Shown in pieces: positions 1 through 49,002 of a DNA stretch of 64,000 bases; position 1 is the stretch's first letter; every line of letters begins with the position of its first letter. The notes beneath the pieces are model-generated. The model was not told the DNA's origin and did no database searches. It saw only the letters and a program-made list of their open reading frames with translations. The DNA is from Rubrivivax sp. (GTDB lineage Bacteria; Pseudomonadota; Gammaproteobacteria; Burkholderiales; Burkholderiaceae_C): the NCBI GenBank assembly GCA_032115875.1, contig JAUMBF010000092.1, forward strand, positions 6,253 through 70,252. Reading direction: 5' to 3'. The position numbers were made by a program, and so were the translations under genes.

Positions 1-2
1 AG

Positions 3-2474: not shown

Positions 2475-2477
2475 GGC

Positions 2478-3302: not shown

Positions 3303-3333
3303 CCGGCCGCACGCCGGCTCTGCCGCGGCGTCG

Positions 3334-3552: not shown

Positions 3553-3561
3553 GTCGCAGCC

Positions 3562-4623: not shown

Positions 4624-4659
4624 GGTGGTTGGGCGGTGGGTGGGTGCGGAGCGCGGAGC

Positions 4660-7511: not shown

Positions 7512-7839
7512 CTTGGGCACTGCCTCAGGGTCAGTCGGTCCGGACGGGCGCGGATTCTGCCACCCTCGCCGTCGTGGCGCGGGCCGCCGACACTTGGGCG
7601 CCACGCGCGCGCCGCCAGAGACATGCGATGTTGAAGACCCTGCTGAAAGCCTTGTTCACACCAACGTGAAGGCCCTCGTCGAAGGACGTTGATCGACGCG
7701 AACCCCCGCCGAGCAGCTGTCGACGATCCCGCGCGGGCCTGCCGAGCAGCCTCGGCAGCGAGCTGTGGCACAGTGCCGGACCGCGCCGCACCCCGCGGCC
7801 TGGAGACTGCCCACCGATGCCCCGCACGATTGCCGCCCC

Positions 7840-8397: not shown

Positions 8398-8399
8398 CG

Positions 8400-10550
8400 A
8401 TGCCGACCGTCCGCTTGCTGGTCATCCTGGCGCTGCTCGTGCTGCCCCTGGCAGCCCTCCCTGCTCCACGATCCGCTGGTGCGACGATGAACCCCGACGA
8501 CGACCCCTTCCTCTGGCTCGAAGACGTGACCGGCGAGCGCGCGCTGGCCTGGGTTCGCGAGCGCAACGCCCTGACCGAGGCCATGCTCATGGCGCGGCCC
8601 GGATTCGCCGAGCGCGAACGTGCCATCCGCGAGGTGTTGGACTCGCGCGACCACATCCCCACCATCAGCCGCATCGGCGACCGCGTCTACAACCTCTGGC
8701 GTGACGCCGCCAACCCGCGCGGCCTGTGGCGCCGCACAACGCTCGAGGAGTACCGCCAGACACAGCCCGCCTGGGAGACCGTGCTCGACCTCGACGTCCT
8801 TGGCAAGTCCGAGGGCGAGAACTGGGTTTGGGGCGGCGCCACCTGCCACGGGCCGGCTTACCAGCGCTGCCTGTTGCAGCTGTCGCGCGGGGGCGCCGAC
8901 GCGACGGTGATGCGCGAGTTCGACCTGCTCGGCAAACGCTTCGTGCCGCCGGCCGAGGGCGGTTTCAGCCTGCCGGAAGCCAAGAGCCTGTCCGCCTGGG
9001 CCGACGCGGACAGCATCTGGATCGGCACCGACTTCGGACCCGGCTCGCTCACCCAAAGCGGCTACCCGCGCATCGTCAAGCGCTGGCAGCGCGGCACGCC
9101 GCTGGCCGACGCGAAGACGGCCTACGAGGGCCGCGCCGAGGACGTGTTCGCCTCCGTCAGTGTCGATACGACCCCCGGCTTCGAGCGCACCGTCTTCTAC
9201 CGCGCACCCGACTTCTACAGCACCGAGTTGGCGCTGCAAGTGGGCGAGGGCCTCATGCCACTGCCCAAGCCGGCCGACGCCAGCCTGCGATTCTGGCGCC
9301 GCCATGTGCTGATGGAGCTGCGCAGCGACTGGCAGTCCGACGGACAGCGCTTCCCGCGCGGGGCCTTGATCGCCGCCGACGCCGAGGCCTACCTGGCTGG
9401 CAAGGCGCAATGGACGCAGCTGTTCACGCCCAGCGCCACGCGCTCGCTGGCGGACACCGACACGACGCGCAGCCGGCTGATCCTCAACGTGCTCGACAAC
9501 GTCGCCAACCGGCTGGAGGAGTGGACGCCACCCGAGCGGCCCGGCGCCCCCTGGACCCGTCGCGAGGTGCAGGCCCCGCACCCCGGGCGGCTCTCGGTGG
9601 TCCCCCTGCACGATCCGAGGGTGGCCGAAGACCCGCTGGCCGAGCACCTGCTGCTCAGCAGCGCCGACTTCCTCCAGCCCGACGCGCTGTGGCTGCTGCG
9701 CACCGGCGAGGACGCCCGCGAGCAGCTGAAGTCGCGGCCCCGTCTTTACGACGCCGAGGGCATGCGCGTCGAGCAGCGCTTTGCCACCAGCCGCGACGGC
9801 ACGCGGGTGCCCTACTTCGTGATCTGGCCCCGGGGTGCGAAGGCCGACGGCCGCAACCCCACGCTGCTGTATGGCTACGGCGGCTTCGAGGTGCCCATGA
9901 CGCCCTGGTACAGCGGCAGCGTGGGCCGAGCCTGGACGACCCAGGGCGGCGTCTACGTGGTTGCCAACATCCGCGGCGGCGGCGAGTTCGGACCGGCCTG
10001 GCACCAGGCCGCACTGCTGGGCGAGCGGCAGAAGAGCTTCGACGACTTCATCGCCGTGGCCGAGGCGCTGGTGCACGAGGGCATCACCAGCCCGCAGCAT
10101 CTTGGCATCCAGGGCGGCAGCAACGGTGGCCTGCTCGTCGGCGCGGTCATGGTGCAAAGGCCGGAGCTGTTCGGCGCCGTCGTCAGCCAGGTGCCCTTGC
10201 TCGACATGCGCCGCTACCACCGCCTGCTGGCCGGCGCCAGCTGGATGGCCGAGTACGGTGACCCGGACCGGCTCGAGCACTGGGCCTTCCTCTCGCGCTA
10301 CAGCCCGTACCACAATCTGCGGCCCTCGCAGAAGCTGCCGCCGGTGTTGTTCGTCACCAGCACGCGCGACGACCGCGTGCACCCGGGACACGCCCGCAAG
10401 ATGACCGCCCGCATGCTCGAGCAAGGGCATCGCGTCTGGTTGTGGGAGAACATCGAGGGTGGCCATGGCGGCGCGGCCGACAACGCGCAGCGTGCGCGCA
10501 TGCAGGCTCTCGAGTACGCCTTTCTCTGGCAACAGCTTGCGGGCCGCTGA
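8400..10550 (+). CDS. Prolyl oligopeptidase (S9A), likely exported
   Basis: DPFLWLE, LLYGYGGF, ANIRGGGEFG, GGSNGG, DDRVHPGH, GGH triad; N-terminal signal-like segment. Confidence 0.93.
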   Translation: MPTVRLLVILALLVLPLAALPAPRSAGATMNPDDDPFLWLEDVTGERALAWVRERNALTEAMLMARPGFAERERAIREVLDSRDHIPTISRIGDRVYNLWRDAANPRGLWRRTTLEEYRQTQPAWETVLDLDVLGKSEGENWVWGGATCHGPAYQRCLLQLSRGGADATVMREFDLLGKRFVPPAEGGFSLPEAKSLSAWADADSIWIGTDFGPGSLTQSGYPRIVKRWQRGTPLADAKTAYEGRAEDVFASVSVDTTPGFERTVFYRAPDFYSTELALQVGEGLMPLPKPADASLRFWRRHVLMELRSDWQSDGQRFPRGALIAADAEAYLAGKAQWTQLFTPSATRSLADTDTTRSRLILNVLDNVANRLEEWTPPERPGAPWTRREVQAPHPGRLSVVPLHDPRVAEDPLAEHLLLSSADFLQPDALWLLRTGEDAREQLKSRPRLYDAEGMRVEQRFATSRDGTRVPYFVIWPRGAKADGRNPTLLYGYGGFEVPMTPWYSGSVGRAWTTQGGVYVVANIRGGGEFGPAWHQAALLGERQKSFDDFIAVAEALVHEGITSPQHLGIQGGSNGGLLVGAVMVQRPELFGAVVSQVPLLDMRRYHRLLAGASWMAEYGDPDRLEHWAFLSRYSPYHNLRPSQKLPPVLFVTSTRDDRVHPGHARKMTARMLEQGHRVWLWENIEGGHGGAADNAQRARMQALEYAFLWQQLAGR

Positions 10551-10567
10551 CACCGCCGGCATGCCCG

Positions 10568-11302
10568 ATGTCGCTGCTGCACTGGATCGACGACGGACGG
10601 CCGTTGCCGCACGCCTCGGCGGCGCTGGGCCCGGGCACCGAGGCCCCGGGGCTGGTGGCGGCCGGTGGCAGCGTCACCCCCGATAGGCTGCTCGAGGCCT
10701 ACCGCGCGGGCATCTTCCCCTGGTACAGCTCCGGCCAGCCGGTGCTGTGGTGGAGCCCCGATCCGCGCATGGTGCTGCCCGTGGCCGAGTTCCGCCTGGC
10801 GCCCTCGCTGAAGAAGACGATCCGCCGCTTCCTGCGCACACCCGGCTGCGAGCTGCGCGTCGACCACGACCTGACTGCCGTCATCGATGCCTGCGCAGAC
10901 ACGCCGCGCGATGGCCAGGATGGCACCTGGATCGTGCCGGCGATGCGCGACGCCTACGTGGCCTGGGGGGCCATGGGGCAGGTGCACAGCGTCGAGACCT
11001 GGGTTCAGGGCCGGCTGGTCGGCGGGCTGTACTTCGTGCTGCTGGGGCGCATGGCCTACGGCGAGTCGATGTTCTCGCGCGCCACCGACGCGAGCAAGAT
11101 CGCGCTGGCCGCACTGGTGGCCGGCTGCCGGCGCCGCGACATCGCCTGGATCGACTGCCAGCAGAACACACGCCACCTGGCCAGTCTGGGCGCACGTGAG
11201 GTACCGCGCGAGCGCTTCCTGGCCCACGTCCGGCATGCATCGGCACAGCAGGGCCCCGCCGCCTGGACCTATGATCCGGCCGACTGGGCGCTCCTGCTGT
11301 AG
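10568..11302 (+). CDS. aat: Leucyl/phenylalanyl-tRNA-protein transferase
   Basis: [45 protein letters not shown]. Confidence 0.94.
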
Positions 11303-11331
11303 CCGCCCGCGACGCCTCTGCCCGATCCCGC

Positions 11332-12087
11332 GTGACGCACCCGAAGGAATTGCCGCTGCGGTCGTTGCAGTTCTATGCGACGGCCCCCTACCCTTGCAGC
11401 TACCTGCCCGAGCGCCAGGCGCGCTCGCAGGTGGCCACGCCCAGCCACCTGATCCACGCCGAGACCTACTCGGGCCTGGTGGCCAACGGCTTCCGGCGCA
11501 GTGGCCTGTTCACCTACCGGCCCTGGTGCGACGGCTGCCGTGCCTGCGTGCCGTTGCGCGTGCCGGTGGAGCGCTTCCAGCCGACACGCAGCCACCGGCG
11601 CGCGCAGCGCCAGCATGGCACCCTAATCTCGCGCGTGCTGCGCCTGGGCTTCGTGCCCGAGCACTACCAGCTCTACCTGCGCTACCAGAGCGGCCGCCAT
11701 GCCGGCGGCGGCATGGATCAGGACAGCGTCGACCAGTACACGCAGTTCCTGCTGCAGAGCCGAGTCAACTCGCGCCTGGTGGAGTTCCGCGAGGCCGGCA
11801 GCGACGGCCAGCCCGGGGTGCTGAAGATGGTGAGCATCCTCGACGTGCTGTCCGACGGCATCTCGGCCGTCTACACCTTCTACGAACCCGAGCCGCACAC
11901 CAGCTATGGCACCTACAGCATCCTGTGGCAGATCGAACAGACGCGCGTCCTGAAGCTGCCGCACGTGTACCTGGGCTACTGGATCGCGCGGAGCCCGAAG
12001 ATGGCCTACAAGGCGCAGTTCGTACCCCATCAGGTGCTGGTCGACGGCGCGTGGCGCGACGCGGACGGATCCTCAGCCGACCGCTGA
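11332..12087 (+). CDS. bpt: Arginyl-tRNA-protein transferase family / Bpt aspartate-glutamate leucyltransferase
   Basis: [44 protein letters not shown]; follows aat. Confidence 0.92.
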
Positions 12088-13764
12088 CCAGCCCTCGCCG
12101 GCCTGCAAGGCGCGGCCTTCGCCCTGCAGCTTGAGCAGGTGCGCCAGCAGCGAGCGCGCAGCCACGCCATGCAGCGCGACGGGAACGTCGTCGTAGACGC
12201 GCGGCAGCAGCGCCTCCTGCGACTGCGGTGCGGTCGCGAGGGCCTGCAACACCTTGGTCTCGCGGCGCAGGCGGTGGGCCACCAGCGCGTCGATGACTGC
12301 CGGCGGCTGGGCGACCAGGAAGCCATGCCCCGGCGCCAGCCAGTGCAAGGGGCGCGTGCCCTCGTCGTGCGCCCGGCGCAGCGCGCGCAGCGACTGCAGG
12401 TAGGCCGCCATGTCGCCATCGGGCGGGTTGATGACGACGGTGGAGCCCTGCATGAGGTGGTCGCCGGTGAACAGCAGCCGCTCCTGCTCGAGCCACCAGC
12501 ACAGGTGGTTGCTGGCGTGGCCCGGTGTGTGAACCGCGTGAAGGGTGAGACCGTCCCCGAGCTCGACCCGCTCGCCGTCGGCGGGCTCGTGGTCGGGGCG
12601 GAAGCTGTCGTCCTGCCACATCGGGTGGCGGGCGAGTCGACCCCACACCGGCGCACCGGTGGCAGCAGCCAGCGGCGCAGCGCCGGGCGAATGGTCGCGG
12701 TGGGTGTGGGTGGCCAAAATGGCGAGCGGCCGCCCGCCCGCGGCCGCGGGCAGCGCGGCCTGCAGCGCCTGAAGGTGGCCCTCGTGGGCCGGGCCGGGAT
12801 CGATCACCACCCAGCGGCTGCCGCTGCCCACCAGGTAGCTGTTGGTGCCCGGGCCCGTCATTGGGCCCGGGTTGGGTGCGGTGATGCGTGCCACGTTGGG
12901 CGACAGCCACACGGCGCGGCCCGGCCGCAGTTCGGCCAACACATCGGCTCGACCTTCGGGATCGAGACGGCCGATCTCGGCATAGGGCAGCTCGTGCGGC
13001 AGCACGACCACCGGCTTGCCAGCGCGCAGCGCGCGGCGCGGCATCACACAGGGCTGCGGGCTGCGCGTGCGCGCAGCCTCCAGCACCGAGGCCACATCGG
13101 CAAAGGCGGCCAGCTCCTTCAGCGTCACGGCGGTCACTGGCAGCAGCTTCAGGCCCCGTGCGGGCGACAAGGCCTCGGCCGGTGTCAGCCACATCAGCTC
13201 GACGGCCTCGCCGAGGTCGGGTGTGGCCTGCTGGCCGGCCGGCGCCTCGGCGACAAAGAACCGCGTGTCGAAGCGCTTGGGCGTGCCCGGCGGCGTGAGC
13301 CAGTGGCTGTGGTACGCAATACCACTCAGATCCAGCGTCAGCCCGGCGGCGTCGCAGAGCATGCCCATGTGGACATCGTTGCGTTGCAGCCGATCGCGCC
13401 AAGCCGCGAGCGCGTGCACCTGGGCAGGCGTCACGGCATGGCCGTCGGCGTCACGGGCCAGCAGCAGGCCGACCTCCTCAAAGGTCTCGCGCACTGCGGC
13501 GATGGCGTAGTCCAGGGCGCCTGCGGGCAGGCCCAGGCTTGCACTGAGCATGGCGTCGTCGGCGCCGTGCACGCAGCGGTGGGCCTCGTGGTCGCGGGGA
13601 TCGAGCACGCCGCCGGGGAACACGGTCACGCCGCTGCGCAGGTCGCCCTCACGTTCAGCGCGGCGCAACATCAGCACCTCCAGACCCCGCTCGCCGTTGC
13701 GCAGCAGGATCAGCGACGCCGCGCGGCGCGCGTCGGCGGGCGTCTCGTGCACGGCAGTCCTCAC
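12073..13764 (-). CDS. NUDIX-like / metallo-beta-lactamase-fold fusion hydrolase
   Basis: N-terminal VFPGG...[11 protein letters not shown] and RFDTRFF; C-terminal [24 protein letters not shown]. Confidence 0.88.
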
Positions 13765-14909
13765 AACAACACCCCGGCCGCGCGCAGCGCAGCGGCATCC
13801 AGACCGGCCTCGGCGAGCACAGCGTCAGCGTGCTCGCCGGGGCGGGCGGGGCGGCGCAGCGCGGGCGCCGGGGTGCGCGAGAAGCGCGGCGCCGGTGCCG
13901 GCTGCCACTGGCCCTCGACCTCGACAAAGCTCTCGCGGGCCAGGGCGTGCGGGTGCGCCGGGGCCTGGTCGAAGTCGAGCACCGGTGCGATGCAGCAGTC
14001 GGTGCCGGCGGCGCGGTCGGTCCATTCGGCCTGGCTGTGGCGTCGGAACGCCGCAGCGATCGCCCCGCGCAGGGCCGGCCAGGCGCTGCGGTCGTGCTGC
14101 CGGGGGGGCCAGGCCGCATCCAAGCCCAGCAGCGCGGCCGCCTGGGCGAAGAACTTCGGCTCCAGCGCCGCCAGGCTCATCCAGCGGCCGTCTGCAGTTT
14201 CGTAGCAGGCGTAGAACGGCGCGCCGCCGTCGAGCAGGTTGCTGCCGCGCCCGGGGCGCCACTGGCCGGCGGCATGCAGGCCCCAGAAGATCGAACCCAG
14301 CGCCGCAGCACCATCGATCATGGCCGCGTCGATCACCTGCCCGCGGCCCGAACGCTGCCGCTCCCACAGCGCCGCCATCACGCCGAAAGCGAGAAACATG
14401 GCACCGCCTCCATAGTCGGCCACCAGGTTCAGAGGCGGCAAGGGTGCGCCGCCGGGCTCGCCGATGGCCTGCAGCAGACCGGTGAGCGCGAGATAGTTCA
14501 GGTCGTGGCCGGCCTGCTGCGCCAGCGGTCCGTGCTGGCCGAAGCCCGTCATGCGGCCGTAGACGAGGCGCGGGTTCGCCGCCGCACAGGGCTCGGGGCC
14601 GAGGCCGAGTTTCTCCATCGCGCCGGGGCGGAAGCCCTCGATCAGGACGTCGGCGCCGGCCACCAGGACCAGCGCTGCATCGCGGCCGGCAGGCTGCTTG
14701 AGGTCCAGTGCCACCGAGCGCCGGCCACGCGCGTTGACGTCGTGCTGCGGTGCCAGGGCCAGCCCCAGACCGCTGGGCGCCAGACGGTCGATGCGCACGA
14801 CATCGGCGCCGAGGTCGGCGAAGAGCATGCAGGCCAGCGGCGCGGGGCCGATGCCGGCGAACTCGATGACTCGAAGGCCCTGCAGCGGGCCGTGGGCGGT
14901 GTCGGTCAT
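13761..14909 (-). CDS. CaiB/BaiF CoA-transferase (alpha-methylacyl-CoA racemase-like)
   Basis: [38 protein letters not shown]. Confidence 0.92.
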
Positions 14910-14963
14910 GGCCGGCAGTGTGCCCGAGCCGGCGGACGGCGCTCGCCAGGCTCAGGGCCAGGA

Positions 14964-15587
14964 TCAAGCCGCTGGCGGCGTCGTCGGCGCGGGCGGCGGC
15001 GCATCGCCTGACTGACGCTCGGCCAGCAGCCAAGCAGCGAATGCGGCGCGCGAGGCCTCGTCCAGCGGCGCCTCGTCCAGCCCCGGCAAGGACCGCACAG
15101 CCGCGCGTTCGGCGGCCAAGGCGGCCACATAGCCGCGCTCGAGCTCCTGCTGCACGCGGACGAAGCGCTGCTGCATGCGCACCAGCGCCCGCAGGTCCTG
15201 GCCGACGGCGAGTGCCGGCCCCTCGGTGCCCAGGCGCAGCGCGGTGTAGGCCACCGGGATCTCCTCATCGCCGTCCGGGCCACCGGGCGGCCGCAGAAGG
15301 TTCACCTCGCGTCGGCGGCCGATGCCGCTGGTGCCGACGTCGGCGAGCAGCTTGTCGACCTTGTGGCGGGTCTGCGGCGTCACGGTGTCGCCGAGCGGCC
15401 GACCCAGCCAGCCCTCGCTGACGGCGGCCAGGCTGCGCGCCTCGTTGTGGGCAATGGCGGTGATGGTGCCATCACGGTCGACGACCATCGCGATGTCGCA
15501 GGCCAGGCTGGCGAACGCCCTGGCCAGCTCAGGCGCGTACTGCGCCAGCAGCGCGAGCTCGGCAAGATCGGGCTGGGGGCGGGGCAT
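14964..15587 (-). CDS. PAS-domain protein equal to PpsR N-terminal domain plus Q-linker, no HTH
   Basis: Aligns by eye with the N-terminal third of the PpsR in this window (DIAMVVDRDG/DIVLVLDRDA; IPVAYTAL/VPVSYTAL; GQDLRA...QQELERGY/GRDLRA...QQAMERDY). Confidence 0.8.
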   Translation of the reverse strand: MPRPQPDLAELALLAQYAPELARAFASLACDIAMVVDRDGTITAIAHNEARSLAAVSEGWLGRPLGDTVTPQTRHKVDKLLADVGTSGIGRRREVNLLRPPGGPDGDEEIPVAYTALRLGTEGPALAVGQDLRALVRMQQRFVRVQQELERGYVAALAAERAAVRSLPGLDEAPLDEASRAAFAAWLLAERQSGDAPPPAPTTPPAA

Positions 15588-15640
15588 GATCGGCGGCGCC
15601 GTCGGGTGGGGGCGCGTCCGCGGGGTGGGATGCGCCAGAG

Positions 15641-16870
15641 TCAGGCCCGCACGAGGCCCAGCAGGTGCGCCACGTCCTTGAAGAAGATCCTCACGTGCGC
15701 CATCGGCTTCTTCCGGGCCAGCTTCTTGTGCATGTAGGACTCGAAGGTGAGCTGCTGCACATCCTTGTCGCGACAGATGCTGACGAAGCGCTCGCGTCGC
15801 TTGTCGCTCACGTACCAGAAGCGCTGCATGATGCCCAGCACCCAGAACACCATGCCGTGCTCGCGCATGAAGCGCTTGCGTGCCAGCTTCAGCGCCTTGG
15901 CCTGCCCCGTGCGCAGGAACTCGGCGGCAGCCTCGGCGGCCAGACGGCCGCCAGTCATGGCGTAGTAGATGCCTTCGCCCGAAGCCGGTGCGACAACGCC
16001 AGCGGCGTCGCCCGCGAGCACCACATCGCGTCCGTTCTCCCAGCGAGGCAGGGGCTTCATCGGGATCGGCGCCCCCTCGCGGCGCAGCGTCGGCGCCGTG
16101 TTCAGACCGCTGGCAGCCCGCAGCTTGGCGGTGGCGTTGCGCAGCGAGAAGCCCTTGTCGGCGCTGCCGGTGCCGATGGACAGCGTGTTGCCGTGCGGGA
16201 ACACCCAGCCGTAGAAGTCGGGCGAGAACTCGCCGCGGTAGACGACGTCGCAGCGGCTCGGGTCGTAGCCTTCAGGCGGCTGCGCCGGGCGCGCCACGAT
16301 CTCGTGATAGGCGAAAACGTAGCTGGTGCGCTCGGCGCCGGGCACGGCCTGCCGCGCGACCTCGCTGCGCGCCCCGTCGGCGCCGATGACGACCCGTGCC
16401 CGCACCTGGGCGCGCGCCGGCGGCTGCGGCCCGCGCTCGCTGCCCGCGCTGGCGTCGGTCTCGAAGTGCACGACGGCGGTTCCGTCGGCCGCACGCCCGA
16501 GCTCCGTAAAGCGGCCCCGGCGACGCACGGCACCGGCCGCAGAGGCCCGCTCGCGCAGCCATTCGTCGAAGACCTCGCGGTCGACCATGCCGACGAAGCC
16601 GCCTTCGATGGGAATGTCGACCCGCTGGTCCGAGGGCGAGACCATGCGTGCGCAGCGGGCCTTGGCCACCAGCAGCGAGTCGGGGATCTCGAAGTCCTTG
16701 ATCAGGCGCGGCGGAATGGCGCCGCCACAGGGCTTGATGCGGCCGGCGCGGTCGAGCAGGAGCACGCTCAGGCCCTGGCGGGCGAGGTCGTGGGCGGCCG
16801 TGGCCCCGGCCGGACCGCCCCCGACGACGACCGCGTCGTAGGTCCGGGGGACGCTGGGCGATTGGTTCAT
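15641..16870 (-). CDS. bchP: Geranylgeranyl reductase
   Basis: VVGGGPAG, IKPCGGAIP, FYGWVFPH, GDAAG...SGEGIYYA. Confidence 0.96.
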   Translation of the reverse strand: MNQSPSVPRTYDAVVVGGGPAGATAAHDLARQGLSVLLLDRAGRIKPCGGAIPPRLIKDFEIPDSLLVAKARCARMVSPSDQRVDIPIEGGFVGMVDREVFDEWLRERASAAGAVRRRGRFTELGRAADGTAVVHFETDASAGSERGPQPPARAQVRARVVIGADGARSEVARQAVPGAERTSYVFAYHEIVARPAQPPEGYDPSRCDVVYRGEFSPDFYGWVFPHGNTLSIGTGSADKGFSLRNATAKLRAASGLNTAPTLRREGAPIPMKPLPRWENGRDVVLAGDAAGVVAPASGEGIYYAMTGGRLAAEAAAEFLRTGQAKALKLARKRFMREHGMVFWVLGIMQRFWYVSDKRRERFVSICRDKDVQQLTFESYMHKKLARKKPMAHVRIFFKDVAHLLGLVRA

Positions 16871-18198
16871 GCGGTTCCTCCTGCCCGCGGTGAGGCGCGG
16901 GATGCGGGTTCAATGCGGGGCGCGGCGGCCGCGGGCGACTGTGGCAAGGCGATGCGCAGCGCCAGCCAGGCGGCGACGATGAAAAGGAGGGCCTCGACCG
17001 CGAACACCAGCCCGTAGGCGGCCACCTGGGAGCCGAGTGCCCAGCGCGCGAGATCGCTCGCCGCGGTGCCGGCGACCCCCCCTACTGCAAAGCCCACGGC
17101 CTGCGCGGCGCCCCACAGGCCCATGCGTGTGCCCTCGCGTGACGCCCGCCCCTGGCCGGCCAGGGCCATCATCGAGCCGATGGCGGCGATCGAGAAGGCT
17201 CCGTTGGCCACGCCAAGGAGGAAGACGTTGGCGCGCAGCGGCCAGGGCGGCCCGAGCGCGGCACCGGCCACCAGGCCCAGCAGCGCCAGTGCCGAAGCCA
17301 GGCAGCCACCAAGGATCCAGTGGCGCAGCGATCCCAGCGATACACCGGCGACGCGGCGCCCGGCCATCGCCGCCAGCACCATGCCGGCCAGCGTGCCGCC
17401 GTGCTGCAGCCCCGACAGCTGGGTGCTCTGGCCGGGCGTGAAGCCGAAGCGGATGCCTGCGTAGGGCTCGAGGATCAGGTCCTGCGCGCTGTAGGCGAGC
17501 ATCGACACCAGCACGAAGATGGTGAAGCGCCGGGCGTCCGCCTCACGCCACACCTCGGCCAGTGCGGCTCGGAACGGCGGGCGGTCGTGGCTGGGTGCGG
17601 TGACCCGCACGGCGCGGCGCTCGACCCCGGCGATGGCCACCAGCGCCAGCACCAAAGCCACCGCCGAGACCACGCCCGACACCTGGACCAGCCGTTGCGG
17701 GCTGAAGGGGTCGAGAAAGCTTCCGGCCAAGCCCGCGCTGGCGGCGAGGCCGACGATCATCATCACCCACACCAGCGTGGCGGCACCCGCGCGCCGCTTG
17801 GGCGGCACCCGGGCGGCCAGCAGCGCCAGCACCGAGGTGCCGGTGGCCGACACACCCAGGCCCACGAACACGAAGCTCGCGGCGGCCAGCGCCAGGCCGG
17901 CTTTCGGCGCGGTGGCCGCCCAGGCCGTGCCCGCGGCGGCACCGAAGCCGCCCAGGGCCAGCACCACCATGCCACCGACGATCCAGGGTGTGCGCAGACC
18001 GCCACGGTCGGAACCGAAACCCATGCGCGGCCTCGTCAGCTGCACGGCATAGTGCAGCGCCACCATCAGTCCCGGCACCAGGGCCGCGAGCTGCAGCTCG
18101 ACCACCATGACGCGGTTGAGCGTGGAGGTGGTGAGCACGACGATGGCTCCAAGCGCCATCTGCACCAGGCCGATGCGGAAGATGGCGAACCAGCTCAC
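16867..18198 (-). CDS. BCD/PucC-family MFS transporter (bch2)
   Basis: LNRVMVVEL, GSDRGG, QDLILEPY, GLWGAAQA; lies between bchG and bchP; GTG start chosen. Confidence 0.88.
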   Translation of the reverse strand: MSWFAIFRIGLVQMALGAIVVLTTSTLNRVMVVELQLAALVPGLMVALHYAVQLTRPRMGFGSDRGGLRTPWIVGGMVVLALGGFGAAAGTAWAATAPKAGLALAAASFVFVGLGVSATGTSVLALLAARVPPKRRAGAATLVWVMMIVGLAASAGLAGSFLDPFSPQRLVQVSGVVSAVALVLALVAIAGVERRAVRVTAPSHDRPPFRAALAEVWREADARRFTIFVLVSMLAYSAQDLILEPYAGIRFGFTPGQSTQLSGLQHGGTLAGMVLAAMAGRRVAGVSLGSLRHWILGGCLASALALLGLVAGAALGPPWPLRANVFLLGVANGAFSIAAIGSMMALAGQGRASREGTRMGLWGAAQAVGFAVGGVAGTAASDLARWALGSQVAAYGLVFAVEALLFIVAAWLALRIALPQSPAAAAPRIEPASRASPRAGGTA

Positions 18199-18256
18199 CG
18201 CACAGCCCCCGATGACGAGCCTTGTGGGCCGGGCACACGGAAGTACAACGATCCGC

Positions 18257-19132
18257 TCATGCCAGGCCCCGAAGGGCAAATGCGCTGACCAGCATGCCGG
18301 CCACGAACAACGTCACGCCCAGGCCGCTGAACCAGATCGCGCGCTCCACCGGCGCGGCGACAAAGCGGCGTGCCATCAGCACTTGTGCCAGCACGAGGCC
18401 GGCGATGGCGGCGGCGTGCACGGGGCGGCCCCAGTCGAGCAGCAACGCGATCACGAGCGCCTGCGCCAACACCATCGTGCCGGCCGCGGCGAAGGCCGCA
18501 CGTCGGGGCCCCAGCTGCACCGGCAGCGACGCAATGCCCATCTTGCGATCACCGGCGATCGACTTGAAGTCGTTGAGCGTCATGATGCCGTGGGCACCGG
18601 CGCTGTACAGCGCCGCCAGGATCAGCGAGCGCAGGTCGGGCATCGCACCACCGGCCATGACGGCGGCGCCGGTGAACCAGGCCAGGCCTTCGTAGCTGAT
18701 GCCGCAGGCCGCATTGCCCCACCAGCCGTTTCGCTTGAGCCGCAACGGCGGCGCGCTGTAGGCCCACGCCAGCAGCAGGCCCACCACCGCGGCGCCAAAG
18801 CCCCAGGGACCGAGCAGCAGCGACAGCAGCAAGGACAACAACGTCCAGAGGATCGCCACATAAAGGCCCCAGCGACCCGGCATGCGACCCGAAGGGATGG
18901 GCCGGTGCGGCTCGTTGATGGCGTCGACGTGGCGGTCGAACCAGTCGTTCACCGCCTGGCTGGTGGCGCACACCGCCGGACCGGCCAGCAGCACGCCCGC
19001 GAAGACAAGGCCGACTCGACCGTCGAGCGACTCGCCGGACGCCACGACGCCGCACCCGAACGCCCACATGGGTGGGAACCAGGTGATCGGCTTCAGCAGT
19101 TCGGCAACCGCCGAGGGCGCAGGCAAGGCCAT
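18257..19132 (-). CDS. bchG: Bacteriochlorophyll synthase
   Basis: LKPITWFPPMWAF, NDWFDRHVDAINEP, AHGIMTLNDFK. Confidence 0.97.
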   Translation of the reverse strand: MALPAPSAVAELLKPITWFPPMWAFGCGVVASGESLDGRVGLVFAGVLLAGPAVCATSQAVNDWFDRHVDAINEPHRPIPSGRMPGRWGLYVAILWTLLSLLLSLLLGPWGFGAAVVGLLLAWAYSAPPLRLKRNGWWGNAACGISYEGLAWFTGAAVMAGGAMPDLRSLILAALYSAGAHGIMTLNDFKSIAGDRKMGIASLPVQLGPRRAAFAAAGTMVLAQALVIALLLDWGRPVHAAAIAGLVLAQVLMARRFVAAPVERAIWFSGLGVTLFVAGMLVSAFALRGLA

Positions 19133-19161
19133 ACCGGCATGGTGCCCCCTGGCCCGAAAAA

Positions 19162-19204
19162 CGTCAATCCGAATTTACACGTGCCGCGTCACGCCAAATT
19201 GACG
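19162..19204. promoter_or_regulatory. Tandem PpsR-type boxes upstream of bchG
   Basis: CGT-N12-ACA (19162-19179) and CGT-N12-ACG (19187-19204), 7 bp apart. Confidence 0.7.
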
Positions 19205-19235
19205 TCCGGGCTCGATGCCGCATGGGCACAGACCT

Positions 19236-20735
19236 TCAGTCGTCACCCTCGCCAGCACCCTCACCGGTCGCCAGGCCATACCGCCGCAGCTTGACGTACA
19301 GGCTCTGCCGAGAAAGGCCCAGGAACTGCGCCGCCAGCGCGCGATTGTTGTGCGTCATCTGCAGCGCTGTCTCGATGCACAGCTGCTCGATGACCTCGGC
19401 GGTCTCGGCGACGATGTCCTTCATCGGCACCCGGCCGACCAGCTCGGTGAGTTCACCGGGCGAACGCGCCAGGGCCGCCACGCCGCGGTCGGTGTTTTCG
19501 ATGCGGCGGCCAATGTCGCGGATCGCGAAGGCCAGCGCCGGCGCGGCCCCGGCGTCGAGCCGGGTCGCCGACACCTCGACTTCATGTGACACCCCGACCT
19601 CCCCTCGCAGCGCCGTGGGGAAAGCGGCCACGACGTCGGCGTTGCGCAGATTGGTGAGCAGCACGTTGAGCTCGACACCGGTGCGGCCGAGCCAACGGTC
19701 GAGCAGCGCACCGCGGGCCGCTTCGGGGCTGGCCAGTTGCGCGAGCGTCGCAAAGGCGGCGTTCGCGCGCAACACACGGCCCTGAGCATCCGTGAAGGCC
19801 AGCGCGTCGGCCGTCTGGCGCTCCCAGGCCTCGAGCAGATGGGTGTGGCCCTGGGCAGTCGCGTGGCCGGCGCTACGGGCCGCGCGCCGCCCGCCTGCAG
19901 GGCCGGCAGCGGCAGGGCGCACGCGCAGCAGCAACTGAGAGGACTGCTGCTGGCGGAACACCGCCAGCGACAGGTCGAACTCGGCGTCCGGCGGCGAAGC
20001 CGAGCCGCTGGACAGGCGCACGCGCGTGCTCTCCGGCGCAGCGTCCACCAACCCGCTGCGGCTGGCCGCCAGCCAGGCCTGAAGCCGGCCCTGCGACGAC
20101 GCATCGAACAGCCCGGGCAGCGCGACCCCGGTCAGCCGGCCTGCCGCGCGGCCGAACAGCGCCTCGGCGGCGGGGTTGGCCTCCAGCACCTTCAGGGACA
20201 AGCTGTCGGCGATCAGCACTGCCTCCGCGGCGGTCTGGAACAAGGTCCGGTAACGGGTCTCGGCTTCGCGAAAGCGCCAGTAATCCCGCTCCATCGCCTG
20301 CTGAGCGTCGACGAGGCGGCGCTGCAACTGGGCCGTGGCGCGAAGGTCGCGGCCCAATGCCAGCAGGGCGGGCTGCTGGTGGCCGGCCGCCTCGTCGCCC
20401 AGCACCAGGGCGGTGTAGCTCACCGGGACGTCATCGCGCCCGGGGACGGCATGGTTCACCTGACGCCAGCGCGCCGGCTGGCCGGCACGCGCGTCCTTGA
20501 TCAGGCTGTCGATCTTGTCGCGCCCCTCGACGGTGACCAGCTCGCGCCAAGGCCGGCCGCGCCACCCCTGGCCGAGCAACTGCGCCAGTTGGGGATCGGG
20601 CACCTGGTGATCCAGCACCACCGCGTCGCGGTCGAGCACCAGAACGATGTCGCTGGCGGTGCCCAGAAGGCGGTTCGCCACGCGAGAGTCGAAATCGCCG
20701 ATCAGGTCCGGCTTGCGGGCCGCCGGCCGCCTCAT
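19236..20735 (-). CDS. ppsR: Transcriptional repressor PpsR/CrtJ
   Basis: Three PAS regions, QQAMERDY Q-linker, C-terminal IEQLCIETAL...LGLSRQSLYVKLRRY HTH with redox Cys. Confidence 0.95.
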   Translation of the reverse strand: MRRPAARKPDLIGDFDSRVANRLLGTASDIVLVLDRDAVVLDHQVPDPQLAQLLGQGWRGRPWRELVTVEGRDKIDSLIKDARAGQPARWRQVNHAVPGRDDVPVSYTALVLGDEAAGHQQPALLALGRDLRATAQLQRRLVDAQQAMERDYWRFREAETRYRTLFQTAAEAVLIADSLSLKVLEANPAAEALFGRAAGRLTGVALPGLFDASSQGRLQAWLAASRSGLVDAAPESTRVRLSSGSASPPDAEFDLSLAVFRQQQSSQLLLRVRPAAAGPAGGRRAARSAGHATAQGHTHLLEAWERQTADALAFTDAQGRVLRANAAFATLAQLASPEAARGALLDRWLGRTGVELNVLLTNLRNADVVAAFPTALRGEVGVSHEVEVSATRLDAGAAPALAFAIRDIGRRIENTDRGVAALARSPGELTELVGRVPMKDIVAETAEVIEQLCIETALQMTHNNRALAAQFLGLSRQSLYVKLRRYGLATGEGAGEGDD

Positions 20736-39538: not shown

Positions 39539-41017
39539 TCAAGAGGGGGTTGAAGAAGGGGTGCCCTGCGGGAACGAGGCACCGCCGGAGGCCTGGGATC
39601 GGACGCCGACCAGCGGCTTCATCACCCAGACGGTGGCGATCAACAACACGATCTCGATCGCATAGACGACAGCATAGCCGCTCGCGGCACCGCGCAGCGC
39701 CCCGGCGCCGAAGACCCCAGGCCCCCAGGCGAGGACCGCGTCCCGCAGCAAGCCGCCGGCAGCCACGGCGACGCCGGCCGCCGTGGCCTGCACCGCCCCC
39801 CAGGCCCCCAGGGCGAGGCCGGCATGCTCCCGCGGCGCGCGGTTCATGGTCAGAGTCAGGGTGCCGTGGGCGAACAGGCCGCCGCCAAAGCCGATGCCGA
39901 TCACCCCCAGCACGAACAGGCCGACGGATTGCGTCAGCGCCGCCGCCAGCACCGCACCGAAGGCGGGCACGCCGAGCAACGCCCCAAGCAGGGCCATGCC
40001 GGCGGGGTCGAAGGACCGGCCGCGCCCACCCAGAGCCACCGGCCAGCCACGGGAGAGCAGCCGCGACGCGAGCGTGAAGCCGGCCAGGCACCCCGAGGCA
40101 AACGCCGCAGTCAGCCAGGTGGTCTGGCCCACGCTCATCCCCAGCACCTGGCCGCCATAGGGCTCCAGCAGCACGTCCTGCATCGCGAACCCCATCGTGC
40201 CCAATCCGATGACGCACAAGCGTCGGCGCGTGCCGCTTTGCGCGGCGTAGCCCCGCCAAGCCTGGCGGAAGTCAGGCTCCGGTTCGGGGTCTCGCAGGCG
40301 GCTGCGACCGATCGATTCCTGCTTCCACAGCGCCACAGTGTTCAGCACCAGCGTCACCAGCGCGCAGGCCTGGATGACCTGCACCAGACGGCCGGGCGAG
40401 AAGTCGGCCAGCACGGACCCGAAGGCGAACGCGCTGACGATCGTTCCCAGCAGCAGCATGACGTACATCAGGCCCACGACCTTGGGATGGTCGTCCACGG
40501 GTGCGAGGTCGGTGGCCAGCGCAAGGCCCGCGGTCTGCACCGTGTGGACTCCGGCGCCCATGAGCAGGAAGGCCACGGCCGCACCGGCCGGGCCCAGCCA
40601 CGAGGGCCACTGTGCCGAATCGCCCTGTCCGGCCAGCACCAGCAGCGCGAAGGGCATCACCGCCAAGCCGCCGAACTGCAGCATCGTGCCCATCCAGATG
40701 TAGGGCACGCGGCGCCAGCCCAAAGCGCTGCGGTGGTGATCGGACTTGAATCCGATCAGGGCCCGCACCGGCGCGTACAGCACCGGCAGCGCCACCATCA
40801 ACGCCACGAGTCCCGCGCTGACGCCGAGCTCGACGATCAGCACACGGTTCAGCGCGCCCACCAGCAGAGCCAAGGCCATGCCCACGCTCACCTGGAACAG
40901 CGACAGCCGCAGCAGTCGCGACAGCGGCAGGGTCGCGCTCGCGGCGTCGGCAAAGGGCAGGAAGCGCGGGCCCAACTCGGCCCAGCTGTGCAACAGGCGA
41001 CGGCTGAAAGGGCTCAT
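39539..41017 (-). CDS. pucC: LH2 assembly protein PucC
   Basis: FLPFADAAS, LFQVSVGM, SALGWRRVPY, MQDVLLEPYGG; downstream of pucBA. Confidence 0.92.
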   Translation of the reverse strand: MSPFSRRLLHSWAELGPRFLPFADAASATLPLSRLLRLSLFQVSVGMALALLVGALNRVLIVELGVSAGLVALMVALPVLYAPVRALIGFKSDHHRSALGWRRVPYIWMGTMLQFGGLAVMPFALLVLAGQGDSAQWPSWLGPAGAAVAFLLMGAGVHTVQTAGLALATDLAPVDDHPKVVGLMYVMLLLGTIVSAFAFGSVLADFSPGRLVQVIQACALVTLVLNTVALWKQESIGRSRLRDPEPEPDFRQAWRGYAAQSGTRRRLCVIGLGTMGFAMQDVLLEPYGGQVLGMSVGQTTWLTAAFASGCLAGFTLASRLLSRGWPVALGGRGRSFDPAGMALLGALLGVPAFGAVLAAALTQSVGLFVLGVIGIGFGGGLFAHGTLTLTMNRAPREHAGLALGAWGAVQATAAGVAVAAGGLLRDAVLAWGPGVFGAGALRGAASGYAVVYAIEIVLLIATVWVMKPLVGVRSQASGGASFPQGTPSSTPS

Positions 41018-41053
41018 GGGCGCTGGCGGAGGAAGCAGTGGTGGACGACGACA

Positions 41054-41117
41054 GCGCTCTTCCCATGGGCGCGGGCCACGCGCATCGGAAGAGCGCCCGG
41101 CAGGCAGGCCTGCCGGG
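41054..41117 (-). terminator. Two stem-loops between pucA and pucC (attenuator / mRNA stability element)
   Basis: CCCGGCAGGC-AG-GCCTGCCGGG (41096-41117) and GCGCTCTTCC...GGAAGAGCGC (41054-41096). Confidence 0.6.
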
Positions 41118-41135
41118 ACGTCTCGATCACCGCCT

Positions 41136-41351
41136 CTACTGCTTGGCAGTGGGTGGCGCTGCCACCGCGGTGGACGTCGGCGTGGTCGCCATCGCCGTGG
41201 CGGTGCCCTTGCCCTCCAGGAACTTCTTCACCCACGTGGTGTTCGTGACCAGCATGTAGTGCACGCTGAACGAACCAATGGCCACCGCGCCGAGGAACAG
41301 CGGGATGCCCACCGTCGGCTTGACCACGAGCCAGAGCTTTCCGTAGATCAT
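41136..41351 (-). CDS. pucA: LH2 alpha polypeptide
   Basis: GKLWLVVKPTVGIPLFLGAV, His31, TNTTW, Ala/Thr/Pro tail; AAGGAG RBS. Confidence 0.93.
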   Translation of the reverse strand: MIYGKLWLVVKPTVGIPLFLGAVAIGSFSVHYMLVTNTTWVKKFLEGKGTATAMATTPTSTAVAAPPTAKQ

Positions 41352-41367
41352 GTTGGCTCCTTCGTAC

Positions 41368-41529
41368 TTACTTCAGCCAGGGGGAGTAGATGTACGCAAA
41401 CAGGTGCGCGAGAGCGGCGATGAAGCCGAAGATCTGCGTGCCCTGAATGAGGTGCTTGTGGATCTCCTCCGACTGCTCTTCGGTCAGGCCGGTCGGCCAG
41501 ACCTTGTCGGATCCGGTTGCGTCTGCCAT
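41368..41529 (-). CDS. pucB: LH2 beta polypeptide (not in ORF track)
   Basis: Manual translation MADATGSDKVWPTGLTEEQSEEIHKHLIQGTQIFGFIAALAHLFAYIYSPWLK; AAGGAG RBS. Confidence 0.95.
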   Translation of the reverse strand: MADATGSDKVWPTGLTEEQSEEIHKHLIQGTQIFGFIAALAHLFAYIYSPWLK

Positions 41530-45008: not shown

Positions 45009-46385
45009 CTACTGCAACCGGACCTCGACGCGACGTGCCGCCGGGTCCTCGCCGGCCACATTGGCACCGGTCAGCTGTGGCTTGTCCAAACGCACGCGGG
45101 CCGGGGCGATGCCGGCGGCCAGAAGCGCTTCACGCACTGCCTGGGCCCGCTTCCGGGCCAACTCCTCGTTGGCCGCCTTCTCACCAGCCACCGAGTGGTA
45201 GCCCGAGACCAGCACCACCGACTTCGGATTGCCACCCAGTGCCGTGAGCACAGACTCCAGGCCCTTGCCCTGATCGGCCACGAGCTCGTTGGATCCGACG
45301 CCAAAGAAGAGCACGGTGCGGCCAGCCTCGGTGACCGGCGGCGGCAGCGTCAGCAGCGGTGCCAGCGCCTGCAGACCGGGGTAGAGCTTGGCCATCTCCT
45401 TGCCGCCGAGTGGCTTGTTCTGGCCGGCGTGGCAAGTGGCGCAGTAGGCCTTGCCGATGTCGCCATGCGGACCCAGGCGGTCCTTGGGGAACGCGTCGGT
45501 AAGAGGCACCACATAGGTGTTGTTGATGTCACGCTCCATGCGGATGCCGTGCCAGGCCGTCACCTTCTTGGGGATCCAGCCGCCGAAGTTCTGCGAGTTG
45601 TGGCAGAAGGTGCAGTTCTGACCGAGGCTCTTGCTGAAGTGCATCATGAGCGCGTAGGTGCGCTCAGCCTGCTGGATGGGCGCGCCGTTGCCGATGCCCT
45701 GTGGCAGCGGCTGCTTGCCGTAGACCTTGATCTCGTCCTCGCCCAGCAGATAGCCGGAGTACGGGTCATAGGGCAGCGAGGTCAGCCCGGGGCCGGTGGC
45801 CTTGTTCTGGCCGAAGTCGTTGCCGAGGGCTCCGCCCAGTGAAGCGTTGCGCACCGGCGTGAGCGGCTTGAACCACATGTTCGCCGGCACGGGGGCGCCG
45901 CGGTGGCAGGTGTAGCAGGTCACGCCCGTGGCGCCGGTGTGCACCTTCCACTGGCTGTTCAGCGCCTGCGTCATCTGGATCATGCGCCGCGCCACGACCT
46001 TGGTGTACATCGAGTCGTCGGCGAAGTTGGCACCGTTGTGGCAGTAATTGCAGCCCTGCTCGGGCGACACCCACTGCGTGATGGCGTTCATGTGGCGGTT
46101 GAACTCGGCCACGGACAGGTCGCCCAGCACCTTGACGTTCTGGTAGACCTGCCCCGCCTTCGGGCCCTCTGCACTGGCGGGCGGCGCGTCTTCGGGGGGG
46201 GCGGGCCGGGCCGCGGCATCCTGGGCGGCCAAGCGCGGATTCACCGTGTGCTGCATCGCCGTGCCGCGGAAGCCCTGCTGGGCTGTGTCCACGGGCGGGC
46301 GTTCACAGCCCGACAGCAGCAGCGTGGCGCCGAGGGCTGCGATCGCGCCCAGCCGCGCCAGGGGGTAGGTGAGCGCCTTCATCAC
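45009..46385 (-). CDS. pufC: Reaction-centre tetraheme cytochrome c with fused C-terminal OmpA-like domain
   Basis: Lipobox [16 protein letters not shown], four CxxCH motifs; extra ~105 aa with FFG...SGYH...[12 protein letters not shown]...ARRVEV. Confidence 0.93.
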
Positions 46386-47368
46386 TTGGCTCCCGTCGTG
46401 AGCATGGAGGGGTCAATGGCCGTGCCCAGGACCGCCGGATAGCTCGGCGCCACATGGTGCTTGACCGCCCACAGGTACCAGTTGTCGACCACCGTACCCG
46501 ACAGCAGGATGCCGATGCCGCCGGTAATGGGCGTGAGCACCGCGAACCACCACGCCCAGCGGTGGATGGATTCCATCGTGGCGTTCCAGCCCATCGTCCA
46601 GCGCCAGAACAGGGCTGCGCGTTCGCTGGCCGTGCCGCGATCGACGATCTGGTCGATCTCGCGGTCACCACCGTAGCGTGTGACGGCCAGGATGGTGGCG
46701 CCGTGCATCGCGAACAGCAGCACGCTGCCGTACAGGAACACGATGCTGAGCGCGTGGAACGGGTTGTAGAACAGGTTGCCGTAGCGCAGCGAGAACGCAG
46801 CCGTCCAGTCCAGGTGGGGGAAGATCCCGTAGGGCACTCCCTCGCTCCAGCTGCCCATCAGCAGCGGCCTGAACAGGCCCAGCACCAGAAACAGCCAGAT
46901 GGCCGCCGCGAAGGCCCACGCGATGTGCGTGCCCATGCCGAGCTGGCGCGCGCGGTTGTAGGTGCGCATCCACCAGGTCAGCACGCTCACCAGCAGCAGC
47001 GCCGAGGCCAGCAGCCACCAGCCGCCCTCGTTCATCGGCGGGATCGACAAGCCGTACTTGGGGTGCGGCGGCTCCAGCGCCAGCCACGGCAGCTGCCGGA
47101 TGAATTCGATGGGGTTCCAGTTCACCGAGGCGAGCTGGTTGAAGCCCATGATGTTGATCGCGAGCGTGCCCGTGATGAGCGAGATCAGGCCCAGCGGCCC
47201 CAGATACAGCGGCCCGATCTGGGCATTGCCCAGGCGGCCGAACAGGTGCACGAGGAAAGGTTTGCCGACGCGCGTGTCGTTCTTGGGCGGCAACTCCACG
47301 CCGTCATGTGCGGGCCCGACGGGCTGCACGCGGGTGAACAGGTTCTGATAGGGAATCTGGCTCAGCAT
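46382..47368 (-). CDS. pufM: Reaction centre M subunit
   Basis: [47 protein letters not shown]. Confidence 0.98.
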
Positions 47369-47378: not shown

Positions 47379-48203
47379 TCACTTCCAGATCGGCAGCTGC
47401 AGCCACCAGTTCCACCACTCGGGCCAGCCGCGGGTCCAGAACGGGCCGCTGATGACGATGCACACCGCGCTGAAGAAGCCCGAGGCCATGGCCAGGAACA
47501 GGCCCAGACGGTGGATGCCCAGCGTGCCCACCGAGTAGCCGATGAGATCGCGGAAGAAGGTGTCCTCGTAGTCCGGCGTCTTCACACGCTCGCCCTTGGG
47601 CGGGTTGGTGGCGCTCAGCACCAGTGCACCGTGCATGGCCAGGGCAAGCGTCGTCGTGAAGAAGAACGTGATCGCCAGCATGTGCGCCGGGTTGTAGTGG
47701 AAGTGCAGGTACTGGTAGCCGATGTTCGACACCCAGTCGAGGTGGCTCCAGATGCCGTACGGGAAGCCGTGCCCCCAGGCGCCCATCAGCACGGGGCGGA
47801 TCACCACCAGCGTGACATAGGCCAGGATGGCCATGCCGAAGGCCGCCGGCACGTGATAGCCCATGCCCAGTTTTCGGCAGATTTCCACCTCGCGCAGCGC
47901 CCAACTCACGAAGGCGCCGATGGCGCACACCGTGACGATCTGCCAGATGCCGCCTTCCTTGAGCGGCGCCAGGGCCAGGCCGTACTTCAGGTCGGGCGGG
48001 GCGATGTTGATGGTCCACGGGTTGAAGGTGCCCTGCACCGCCGCACCGTAGAAGATCATGGCCGTTCCGAGGAACGTGAAGAAGACGGTGGTGACGCCGA
48101 AGAAGCCGACGTAGAAGGGACCGACCCAGAAGTCGAACAGGTCACCCCCAACCAGGGTGCCGCCCCGCACCCGGTACTTGCGCTCGAAACTCAGCATGGC
48201 CAT
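47379..48203 (-). CDS. pufL: Reaction centre L subunit
   Basis: [36 protein letters not shown]. Confidence 0.98.
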
Positions 48204-48414: not shown

Positions 48415-48588
48415 TCACTTCTTCGCGGCCGCCTTGTCGACGACGGCGCGAGCGTTCGGACCGTCGAACCAGTTGTAGGTCGCGGTGCTGAGCAGGATGA
48501 GGTGGATCATCGCTGCCAGGCCAAAGAGGAAGATCCCCTGCACGACCATCGCGCGCAGCGGGTCGTAGAGCTTCCAGATACGCCACAT
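48415..48588 (-). CDS. pufA: LH1 alpha polypeptide
   Basis: [20 protein letters not shown] at His+11. Confidence 0.96.
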
Positions 48589-48599: not shown

Positions 48600-48824
48600 C
48601 TATTGAAGGTGGGACATGAAGGTGTAGACCGCGGACTTGACGCCGCCGGTCATCGACTTCACGCCTTCCGCGCCGGGCAACCAGGAACGCCACTGGCAGC
48701 CGAACAACTGCCCGATCACCGCGATCAGCCCGAAGAGCACGAAGCCCAGCAGGAAGATGGTCGAGGTCGAGACCGAGTCGGTCTGTCCCTCGTGCCGGTG
48801 AGAAAGGTGTCGTGCGTCAGCCAT
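48600..48824 (-). CDS. 74-aa membrane protein between pufB and pufA
   Basis: AAGGAG RBS; one TM then WRSWLPGAEG...GGVKSAVYTFMSHL; stop codon overlaps the pufA RBS. Confidence 0.8.
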   Translation of the reverse strand: MADARHLSHRHEGQTDSVSTSTIFLLGFVLFGLIAVIGQLFGCQWRSWLPGAEGVKSMTGGVKSAVYTFMSHLQ

Positions 48825-48855: not shown

Positions 48856-49002
48856 TCAGAGCCAGGGTCGCCAGATCCAGACCAGGAGGTGTGCGACCAC
48901 GGCTACCGCCGTGAAACCCACAAACCCCTGGACCCAGAACCGGTGAAACTCCTGGGCCTCGTCGTCAGTCAGGCCCGAGATCGAGCCCTTGCGTTCAGCC
49001 AT
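48856..49002 (-). CDS. pufB: LH1 beta polypeptide
   Basis: [27 protein letters not shown]; GAGGAG RBS. Confidence 0.97.

Follow-up and report, generated by a model that had tools for sequence, protein, structure and literature searches.

An OmpA-like domain on the reaction-centre cytochrome PufC of Burkholderiales, a candidate and often-lost leash to the cell wall

Introduction

How phototrophs decide between placing photosystems in cell-surface membranes and in internal membranes is an old question. It is raised here by a gene in the window (the whole stretch of Rubrivivax sp. DNA that was analysed, 64,000 nucleotides), in which the reaction-centre cytochrome PufC runs on into an OmpA-like domain. 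Is this fusion real, how widespread is it, and what would such a domain do on a photosystem? The fusion architecture is already known from print, and the idea of an anchor has been proposed for another photosystem. The prevalence of the fusion, a clade in which the binding-pocket Asp is fixed as Ser, a move of the domain to PufM, deletion remnants and a tag shared with pumps were not found described together. We argue, with a probability of about 0.55 and from sequence and analogy, that the domain on PufC is an accessory, often-lost leash that would tie the RC-LH1 complex to peptidoglycan.

A real fusion in an ordinary puf operon

The genes of the operon, all on the minus strand, are:

45009–46385, minus strand: pufC-ompA fusion gene, 458 aa (NF040706 PufC, 424.9 bits, cut-off 150)
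46382–47368, minus strand: pufM, 328 aa, of ordinary length and without an added domain
47379–48203, minus strand: pufL
48415–48588, minus strand: pufA, LH1 alpha
48856–49002, minus strand: pufB, LH1 beta

The gene order is bchXYZ-pufB-orf-pufA-pufL-pufM-pufC-crtA-crtD-crtC, with pufC directly behind pufM; its GTG start codon overlaps the pufM stop, and an ATG is codon 2. The open reading frame between pufB and pufA (48600–48824, minus strand) encodes 74 aa with one hydrophobic stretch and no match in Pfam.

A preliminary description, made from the DNA letters alone, had proposed an intact PufC frame with neither stop nor frameshift, and translation of 45009–46385 gives just such a single, stop-free frame of 458 aa. 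It had also called for sequence continuity over 45300–45400 and for an architecture search over genomes. A contig of an independent study (X11) bridges the junction (45030–45465) without a single difference or gap. Residues 300–458 find 273 matching proteins in the database, and all of the 120 listed carry both PF02276 and PF00691. An assembly or frameshift artefact is ruled out by these two observations: the fusion is real. An RNA-library contig (X9) crosses the junction as well (45242–45693). It comes from the study of a possible source sample, and the RNA run behind it covers window positions 1–20000 only sparsely; the contig is compatible with expression of pufC-ompA and does not demonstrate it.

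The protein can be divided as follows:

46305–46385, minus strand: predicted lipoprotein signal peptide with lipobox LSG-C27 (from sequence; C27 invariant in 108 of 108)
45372–46304, minus strand: tetrahaem cytochrome core, residues 28–338, with four CxxCH motifs
45321–45371, minus strand: Ala/Pro linker, residues 339–355
45012–45320, minus strand: OmpA-like domain, residues 356–458, of the His-Ser type

Conservation was read from an alignment of the window protein with 107 of the 120 listed relatives, the 13 partial ones being left out. The lipobox reads LLLSG-C27, the CxxCH motifs start at C112, C157, C258 and C315, and M99, M135, H149 and M247 are invariant or at least 90% conserved. These last four we take to be the axial haem ligands, as assigned by spacing in the Blastochloris viridis cytochrome. 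CytoC_RC (PF02276) covers residues 28–338 (423 bits, cut-off 22.4, E 8.9e-127). The host PufC is a normal reaction-centre tetrahaem cytochrome, with its lipoprotein Cys, behind pufM in a puf operon; lipobox, haem motifs and Met/Met/His/Met pattern are all present as first described, and conserved in the alignment.

The tail matches OmpA (PF00691) over residues 360–432 (41.5 bits, cut-off 27.2, E 1.8e-10), so that both halves score above their cut-offs in the Pfam scan that had been suggested. Its type is recognised by the motifs SGYHS..G....N..LA..RA..VR and EAN.AGEDP..RRVEV. AlphaFold2, run on the full protein with the 108-sequence alignment, predicts a beta-alpha-beta-alpha-beta-(alpha)-beta fold with pLDDT mostly 87–98, and the domain predicted alone reaches pLDDT 88.8 and pTM 0.83. 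In Foldseek, the tail of the full model is matched to Pal of A. baumannii (4g4w) with TM 0.81 of target and rmsd 2.7, and to OmpA of the same species in complex with DAP (3td4) with TM 0.73 and rmsd 2.2. By profile and predicted fold, the tail is a folded OmpA-like domain, in agreement with the initial reading of a Pro linker followed by about 105 aa of this kind. The first half of the linker is variable (mean identity 22% over residues 339–346), and an LPxP motif is conserved. Within residues 347–458, 20 positions are invariant over 108 sequences; conservation is 68% in the domain and 63% in the core, a comparison biased by the choice of relatives through the domain match. In five pairwise comparisons dN/dS is 0.11–0.33 for the domain and 0.07–0.41 for the core. 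Where it is retained, the domain is under purifying selection.

The host and its membranes

PufC cores 92% identical to that of the host occur in MAGs named Rubrivivax sp. or Betaproteobacteria (L046, L047), and the window stretch was found in freshwater and plankton metagenomes. In the host genome, which is 86% complete, acsF, LH2 genes and two HiPIP genes are present; at that completeness, bchE and RuBisCO were not found. The host probably lives as an aerobic anoxygenic photoheterotroph. A canonical OmpA-like protein and a Pal-like one, both with GHTD, are encoded as well.

Does the fusion mark phototrophs that lack LH2 or are strictly heterotrophic? This idea is unsupported: LH2 (at least three antenna-gene matches) is encoded in 12 of 25 fused and 18 of 44 unfused genomes (p 0.62), and RuBisCO in 12 of 25 and 14 of 44 (p 0.21), counting strong or split matches only and excluding five unfused genomes with weaker, probably RuBisCO-like matches (19/44 with them). 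LH2 and RuBisCO genes are only proxies for internal membranes. The suggestion that these photosystems sit in the peripheral membrane rather than in vesicles gains nothing from such proxies, and the window itself encodes LH2. On the ultrastructure of these betaproteobacteria, nothing usable was found in the literature searched. The LH2 genes (39539–41529, minus strand) belong to the photosynthesis cluster itself and come shortly downstream of the crt genes:

41368–41529, minus strand: pucB
41136–41351, minus strand: probable pucA
39539–41017, minus strand: pucC

A diaminopimelate pocket with Ser in place of Asp

Does the domain still have the means to bind the wall? In PorE, Asp576 and Asn584 bond the amine of diaminopimelate (DAP) and Arg591 its carboxylate, with the assistance of main-chain amides (PMC7192894); in A. 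baumannii OmpA, Asp271 and Arg286 are reported to be essential for DAP binding (PMC12108004). The corresponding codons in the window are:

45192–45194, minus strand: Ser398, at the position of the DAP-amine-binding Asp of canonical domains (alignment to PDB chains)
45168–45170, minus strand: Asn406, second pocket side chain (PorE Asn584 by spacing)
45147–45149, minus strand: Arg413, the DAP-carboxylate-binding Arg

When the host domain is aligned to PDB chains, Ser398 falls on the Asp of GHTD/GYTD and Arg413 on the conserved Arg. Ser398, Asn406 and Arg413 are each invariant in all 108 aligned sequences, as are His397, Leu409 and Glu446, the last within a clade-specific GEDP motif (G445–P448); Phe361 and Ser365 of the pocket are also fixed. 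As aligned, the domain keeps the Arg and Asn of the DAP pocket and lacks the Asp, which sets it apart from canonical DAP-binding members, and the change from Asp to Ser, noticed at the outset in the one protein, is a fixed trait of a clade rather than a one-off. Going by these residues, DAP binding by the Ser-form domain is likely weaker or shifted, and possibly lost. Nothing usable on binding by OmpA domains without the Asp was found in the literature searched; the His-Ser domain offers a natural Asp-less pocket of this kind.

A scan of metagenome contigs with the motif G[FY]HS..G....N..L[AS]..RA..V returned at least 120 loci. Among the 120 listed, BLAST assigns 93 to PufC and 6 to PufM, 6 more are linked to reaction centres by eye, 8 sit on other carriers with no reaction-centre partner, and 7 are too short to assign. 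The notion that the His-Ser type is exclusive to reaction centres was dropped on account of those 8 of 120. In the domain tree, the carriers outside reaction centres fall into at least two separate positions, and the Asp-to-Ser change has therefore been tolerated more than once.

Gain and loss among relatives

How common is the fusion? In the host family, 251 genomes were sampled, 40 have pufC and 18 of these carry the domain, all 40 loci having been inspected; among the carriers, 17 have a His-Ser domain, one of them in a frameshifted pufC, and 1 has the Asp type described below. In the order, 301 genomes were sampled; the domain is present in 8 of the 36 with pufC (2 His-Ser, 6 Asp) and absent from 28, of which 23 were inspected and confirmed, one with a remnant. 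With 273 matching proteins, many family genomes, a second PufC clade and a mention in print, the idea of a unique fusion was dropped. Cultured carriers include Piscinibacterium candidicorallinum LMG 29480, Rivibacter subsaxonicus DSM 19570, Methylibium sp. Root1272, Azohydromonas sediminis, Variovorax sp. H27-G14 and strain AAP99.

On a FastTree phylogeny of the PufC core (112 rows), fused and unfused genes are interspersed, and the starred branches force at least 12 changes. Two genes carry in-frame deletions at the 3' end of pufC: in G235 (L151) the last third of the domain is left, and in G366 (L128) the first and last few domain residues. Because of this interspersion and these remnants, the domain is to be regarded as accessory and often lost. 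Since sister cytochromes do without it, two of them through in-frame deletion, we read it as lying outside the electron-transfer chain.

Other arrangements were seen along the way. At L087:4186–6336 a single frame joins PufM 1–277, PufC from residue 73 and the domain, probably as an artefact of assembly or as the outcome of a deletion. L014/L015 (G181), G308, G335, G412 and G504 have, besides, a second pufC-like gene that is more distant and lacks the fusion, and a second pufC in L140 (G504:C2) has a C-terminal extension of about 200 aa with a small, non-OmpA domain.

The same tag on other membrane proteins

The domain is not confined to His-Ser PufC. A second PufC fusion clade, with the motif SG[FY][AT]D, has kept the Asp; among the 120 matches listed in a search for it, 116 are PufC with OmpA and 4 are H+-pyrophosphatases, the Asp being present in all 120. 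With the Asp intact, the same subfamily is found C-terminally on H+-PPase, CoxB-cytochrome c, cytochrome c5, HlyD-type and DUF937 proteins and single-helix anchors, and N-terminally on AmtB. From the established topology of those families, the domain-bearing ends of the carriers would be expected to face the periplasm. The statement in the preliminary description that similar domains occur on CoxB in relatives proved correct (L010, L013, L167); the literature searched held nothing usable describing a CoxB-OmpA fusion. The AmtB proteins with an N-terminal domain are at L166:2016–3200 and L172:1890–2999, and L176:1409–2347 encodes a membrane-anchored c5-like cytochrome with the same domain at its C-terminus. 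At L178:531–3923, aconitase and an OmpA-like domain share one frame of 1131 aa, possibly by read-through or assembly error.

PufM can be the carrier too. At three GTDB loci (L098:4969–6312, L100:4936–6327 and L101:1865–3415) PufM bears the His-Ser domain, and the pufC that follows has a long Ala/Pro tail but no fusion. These PufM domains nest inside the reaction-centre clade (support 99/94), and a domain that has moved to PufM beside an unfused pufC presumably works for the reaction centre as a whole rather than for the cytochrome in particular. PufM proteins of at least 393 aa number 291; among the 120 listed, 35 have PF00691, of which 4 are His-Ser and 31 canonical, the latter with a plainly different, GHTD-type domain (one protein is named Gemmatimonadales). 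In the remaining 85 of 120 the extra length contains no OmpA domain and may represent long N-terminal calls or other extensions. As classified from their sequences, the OmpA-like domains that reaction centres have acquired fall into no fewer than two plainly distinct types, most with a complete DAP pocket.

Did the Ser- and Asp-type PufC fusions arise separately? In the careful domain tree, the Asp-type PufC domains group with CoxB domains, away from the His-Ser clade; AU tests, however, do not reject a single clade (p 0.55, p 0.11), and separate origins, which the tree favours, are not claimed. The domain trees are unrooted, both outgroups being long branches, one of which, labelled MotB, turned out to be Pal-like.

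Is the photosystem tied to the wall?

To judge from the lipobox and the homology to PufC, the protein would be exported, lipidated at Cys27 and assembled on PufLM, and the domain would thereby stand in the periplasm, atop the cytochrome. A linker of about 21 residues may give it the reach to the wall, where Arg413 would hold the meso-DAP carboxylate, and Asn406 and main-chain groups the amine; with Ser398 in place of Asp, affinity is probably lowered or specificity shifted. RC-LH1 would then be held in membrane apposed to the wall, which could limit its diffusion or the curvature of the membrane.

Such a leash is favoured because two of the three side chains that bond DAP in PorE are invariant in the host domain, because a second PufC fusion clade keeps the Asp, because a fold known for wall binding has been recruited repeatedly to photosystems (PufC, PufM and Gloeobacter PsaB), and because the same subfamily, Asp intact, caps other inner-membrane proteins. 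The linkers fit loosely with wall reach as well: on the tall cytochrome they are short (median 21–22 residues, n=354), and they are longer on H+-PPase, which lies flush with the membrane (50, n=9), and on PufM, where the count starts after the last helix (56, n=8). On the other hand, the CoxB linker is long (48, n=3) despite a tall periplasmic part. Also counted against the leash are the loss of the binding-relevant Asp with Ser fixed in its place, the GEDP motif, which could be a protein-binding surface, the pufC genomes without the domain (22/40 in the family, 28/36 in the order), the lack of any LH2 or RuBisCO association, the joining of the domain to a cytoplasmic aconitase in L178, and the Gloeobacter tail, which is unseen in the cryo-EM map and for which anchoring is hypothetical. 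Neither a functional test of any Puf fusion nor a mention of the Ser-type domain was found in the literature searched, which leaves out most subscription papers; PMC11762602 and PMC4582080 yielded nothing that bears on the question.

Could the His-Ser domain have abandoned the wall altogether and instead dock proteins where the reaction centre faces the periplasm, either covering the cytochrome like a lid or catching a soluble donor (HiPIP or cytochrome c8) or a partner complex? The Asp is lost, a new invariant surface (H397, S398, EAN.AGEDP) is fixed in the reaction-centre clade, 105 of the 120 listed His-Ser motif matches are on PufC or PufM, the domain is at least as conserved as the core (with the selection bias given above), and the host has two HiPIP genes. 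Nevertheless, the pocket residues Arg413, Asn406, Leu409, Phe361 and Ser365 stay fixed, Asp-type and canonical domains make the same fusion, and His-Ser domains ride non-photosynthetic carriers too, all of which leaves docking doubtful as the explanation. Docking of respiratory complexes, suggested earlier, finds little favour here if it is to work from tag to tag: the host CoxB is untagged, and no second subfamily member and no H+-PPase were found in the genome (86% complete), so that tag-to-tag docking on cytochrome oxidase was rejected for this host.

A more modest proposal would be that an abundant membrane protein serves as a cheap carrier for a generic envelope tether, with no specific placement of the photosystem. 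The subfamily does ride many unrelated inner-membrane proteins and bare single-helix anchors. Genomes with a PufC fusion more often have further tags (16/25 vs 10/44 unfused) and are larger (median 4.4 vs 3.35 Mb), with few below 3.5 Mb (1/25 vs 23/44), although kin are not independent in the size comparisons. This proposal is nonetheless unlikely, given that the reaction-centre version forms its own clade, that the tag stayed on the reaction centre when moving from PufC to PufM, and that in 9 of 25 fused genomes no further tag turns up at E<=1e-17. That the domain is a mere passenger, neutral or in decay, or that the tail is removed once exported, is very improbable: the patchy distribution and the remnants in G235 and G366 would suit it, but the low dN/dS and the 20 invariant positions would not. 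The leash to peptidoglycan remains our preferred reading. A bolder extension of it, which we consider quite unlikely, is that Burkholderiales pin reaction centre, cytochrome oxidase, H+-pyrophosphatase and cytochrome c5 to the sacculus by one mobile OmpA-like tag, the Ser of the reaction-centre clade reading cross-linked (acylated) rather than free DAP, so that mature wall would hold the photosystems and keep them from entering invaginations. Such wall-based placement would have been reached independently in purple bacteria, Gemmatimonadota and Gloeobacter.

The findings point to a tag shared by several proton-pumping complexes. Cultured carriers, natural Ser and Asp variants and sisters with deletions make the anchor idea directly testable. 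The significance is tempered by the prior mention in print and by the accessory, often-lost status of the domain.

Comparison with known systems

Canonical PufC (PF02276, NF040706; PDB 1PRC, 5Y5S, 8WDU, 8Z82) shares with the host protein the lipobox, the four haem motifs and the pufBALMC operon. The host is 39–50% identical to the top solved PufC chains, and in Foldseek the core fold matches fully; among 23 matched solved-chain sequences, none reaches the OmpA-like part, the matches stopping by residue 349. Canonical OmpA-like domains (3TD4/3TD5, Pal 4G4W, PorE 6TOP, MotB) have in common with the host domain the fold, the pocket Asn and Arg and the RRVE end motif. In the host, however, Asp is replaced by Ser and the preceding Thr by His, the C-terminal loop reads KP...EAN.AGEDP..RR rather than G.G...P...N.T..GR..NRR, and the domain is anchored from the inner-membrane side, unlike those canonical ones.

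The preliminary description knew of no published PufC fusion. A 2025 paper does mention them (Biomolecules 2025;15(11):1529, PMC12650329; preprint 10.1101/2025.09.22.677880, section 3.4, Fig. 10E): three PufM and some PufC proteins with OmpA-like fusions, the same architecture as in the host. Its three sentences on the subject term the fusions rare and leave wrong gene models possible, and place the domain N-terminally in the text and C-terminally in the legend; unlike the present analysis, its text, supplements aside, gives no prevalence, subtypes, pocket residues or mechanism. What was a doubted annotation is now a real and common trait (18/40 sampled pufC genomes of the host family). The H+-PPase-OmpA fusion noted in PMC11210485, its role stated there as unknown, uses the same betaproteobacterial domain subfamily; it differs in having a proton pump as carrier and in retaining the Asp (HD, TD or AD).

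The closest precedent is in photosystem I. The subfamily profile matches PsaB of the Gloeobacter violaceus structure (PDB 7F4V, PMC9000952) at residues 754–862 of chain aB (7f4v, E 1.7e-10). Like host PufC, this PsaB ends in an OmpA-like tail, part of a 155-aa C-terminal extension; mass spectrometry confirmed this extension, the map does not show it, and its role as an anchor of PSI on peptidoglycan is a hypothesis (PMC11565984). Gloeobacter has a type I, oxygenic centre, with the extension in two species, whereas the host has a type II centre with the domain on its cytochrome subunit. The Gloeobacter model concerns a cell that lacks internal membranes and has its photosystems in the cytoplasmic membrane; on this point LH2 and RuBisCO genes serve as proxies, and neither is associated with the fusion. 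Compared with the PsaB tail, the host domain is carried by a large share of a family, belongs to a distinct subfamily and has exchanged its Asp for Ser.
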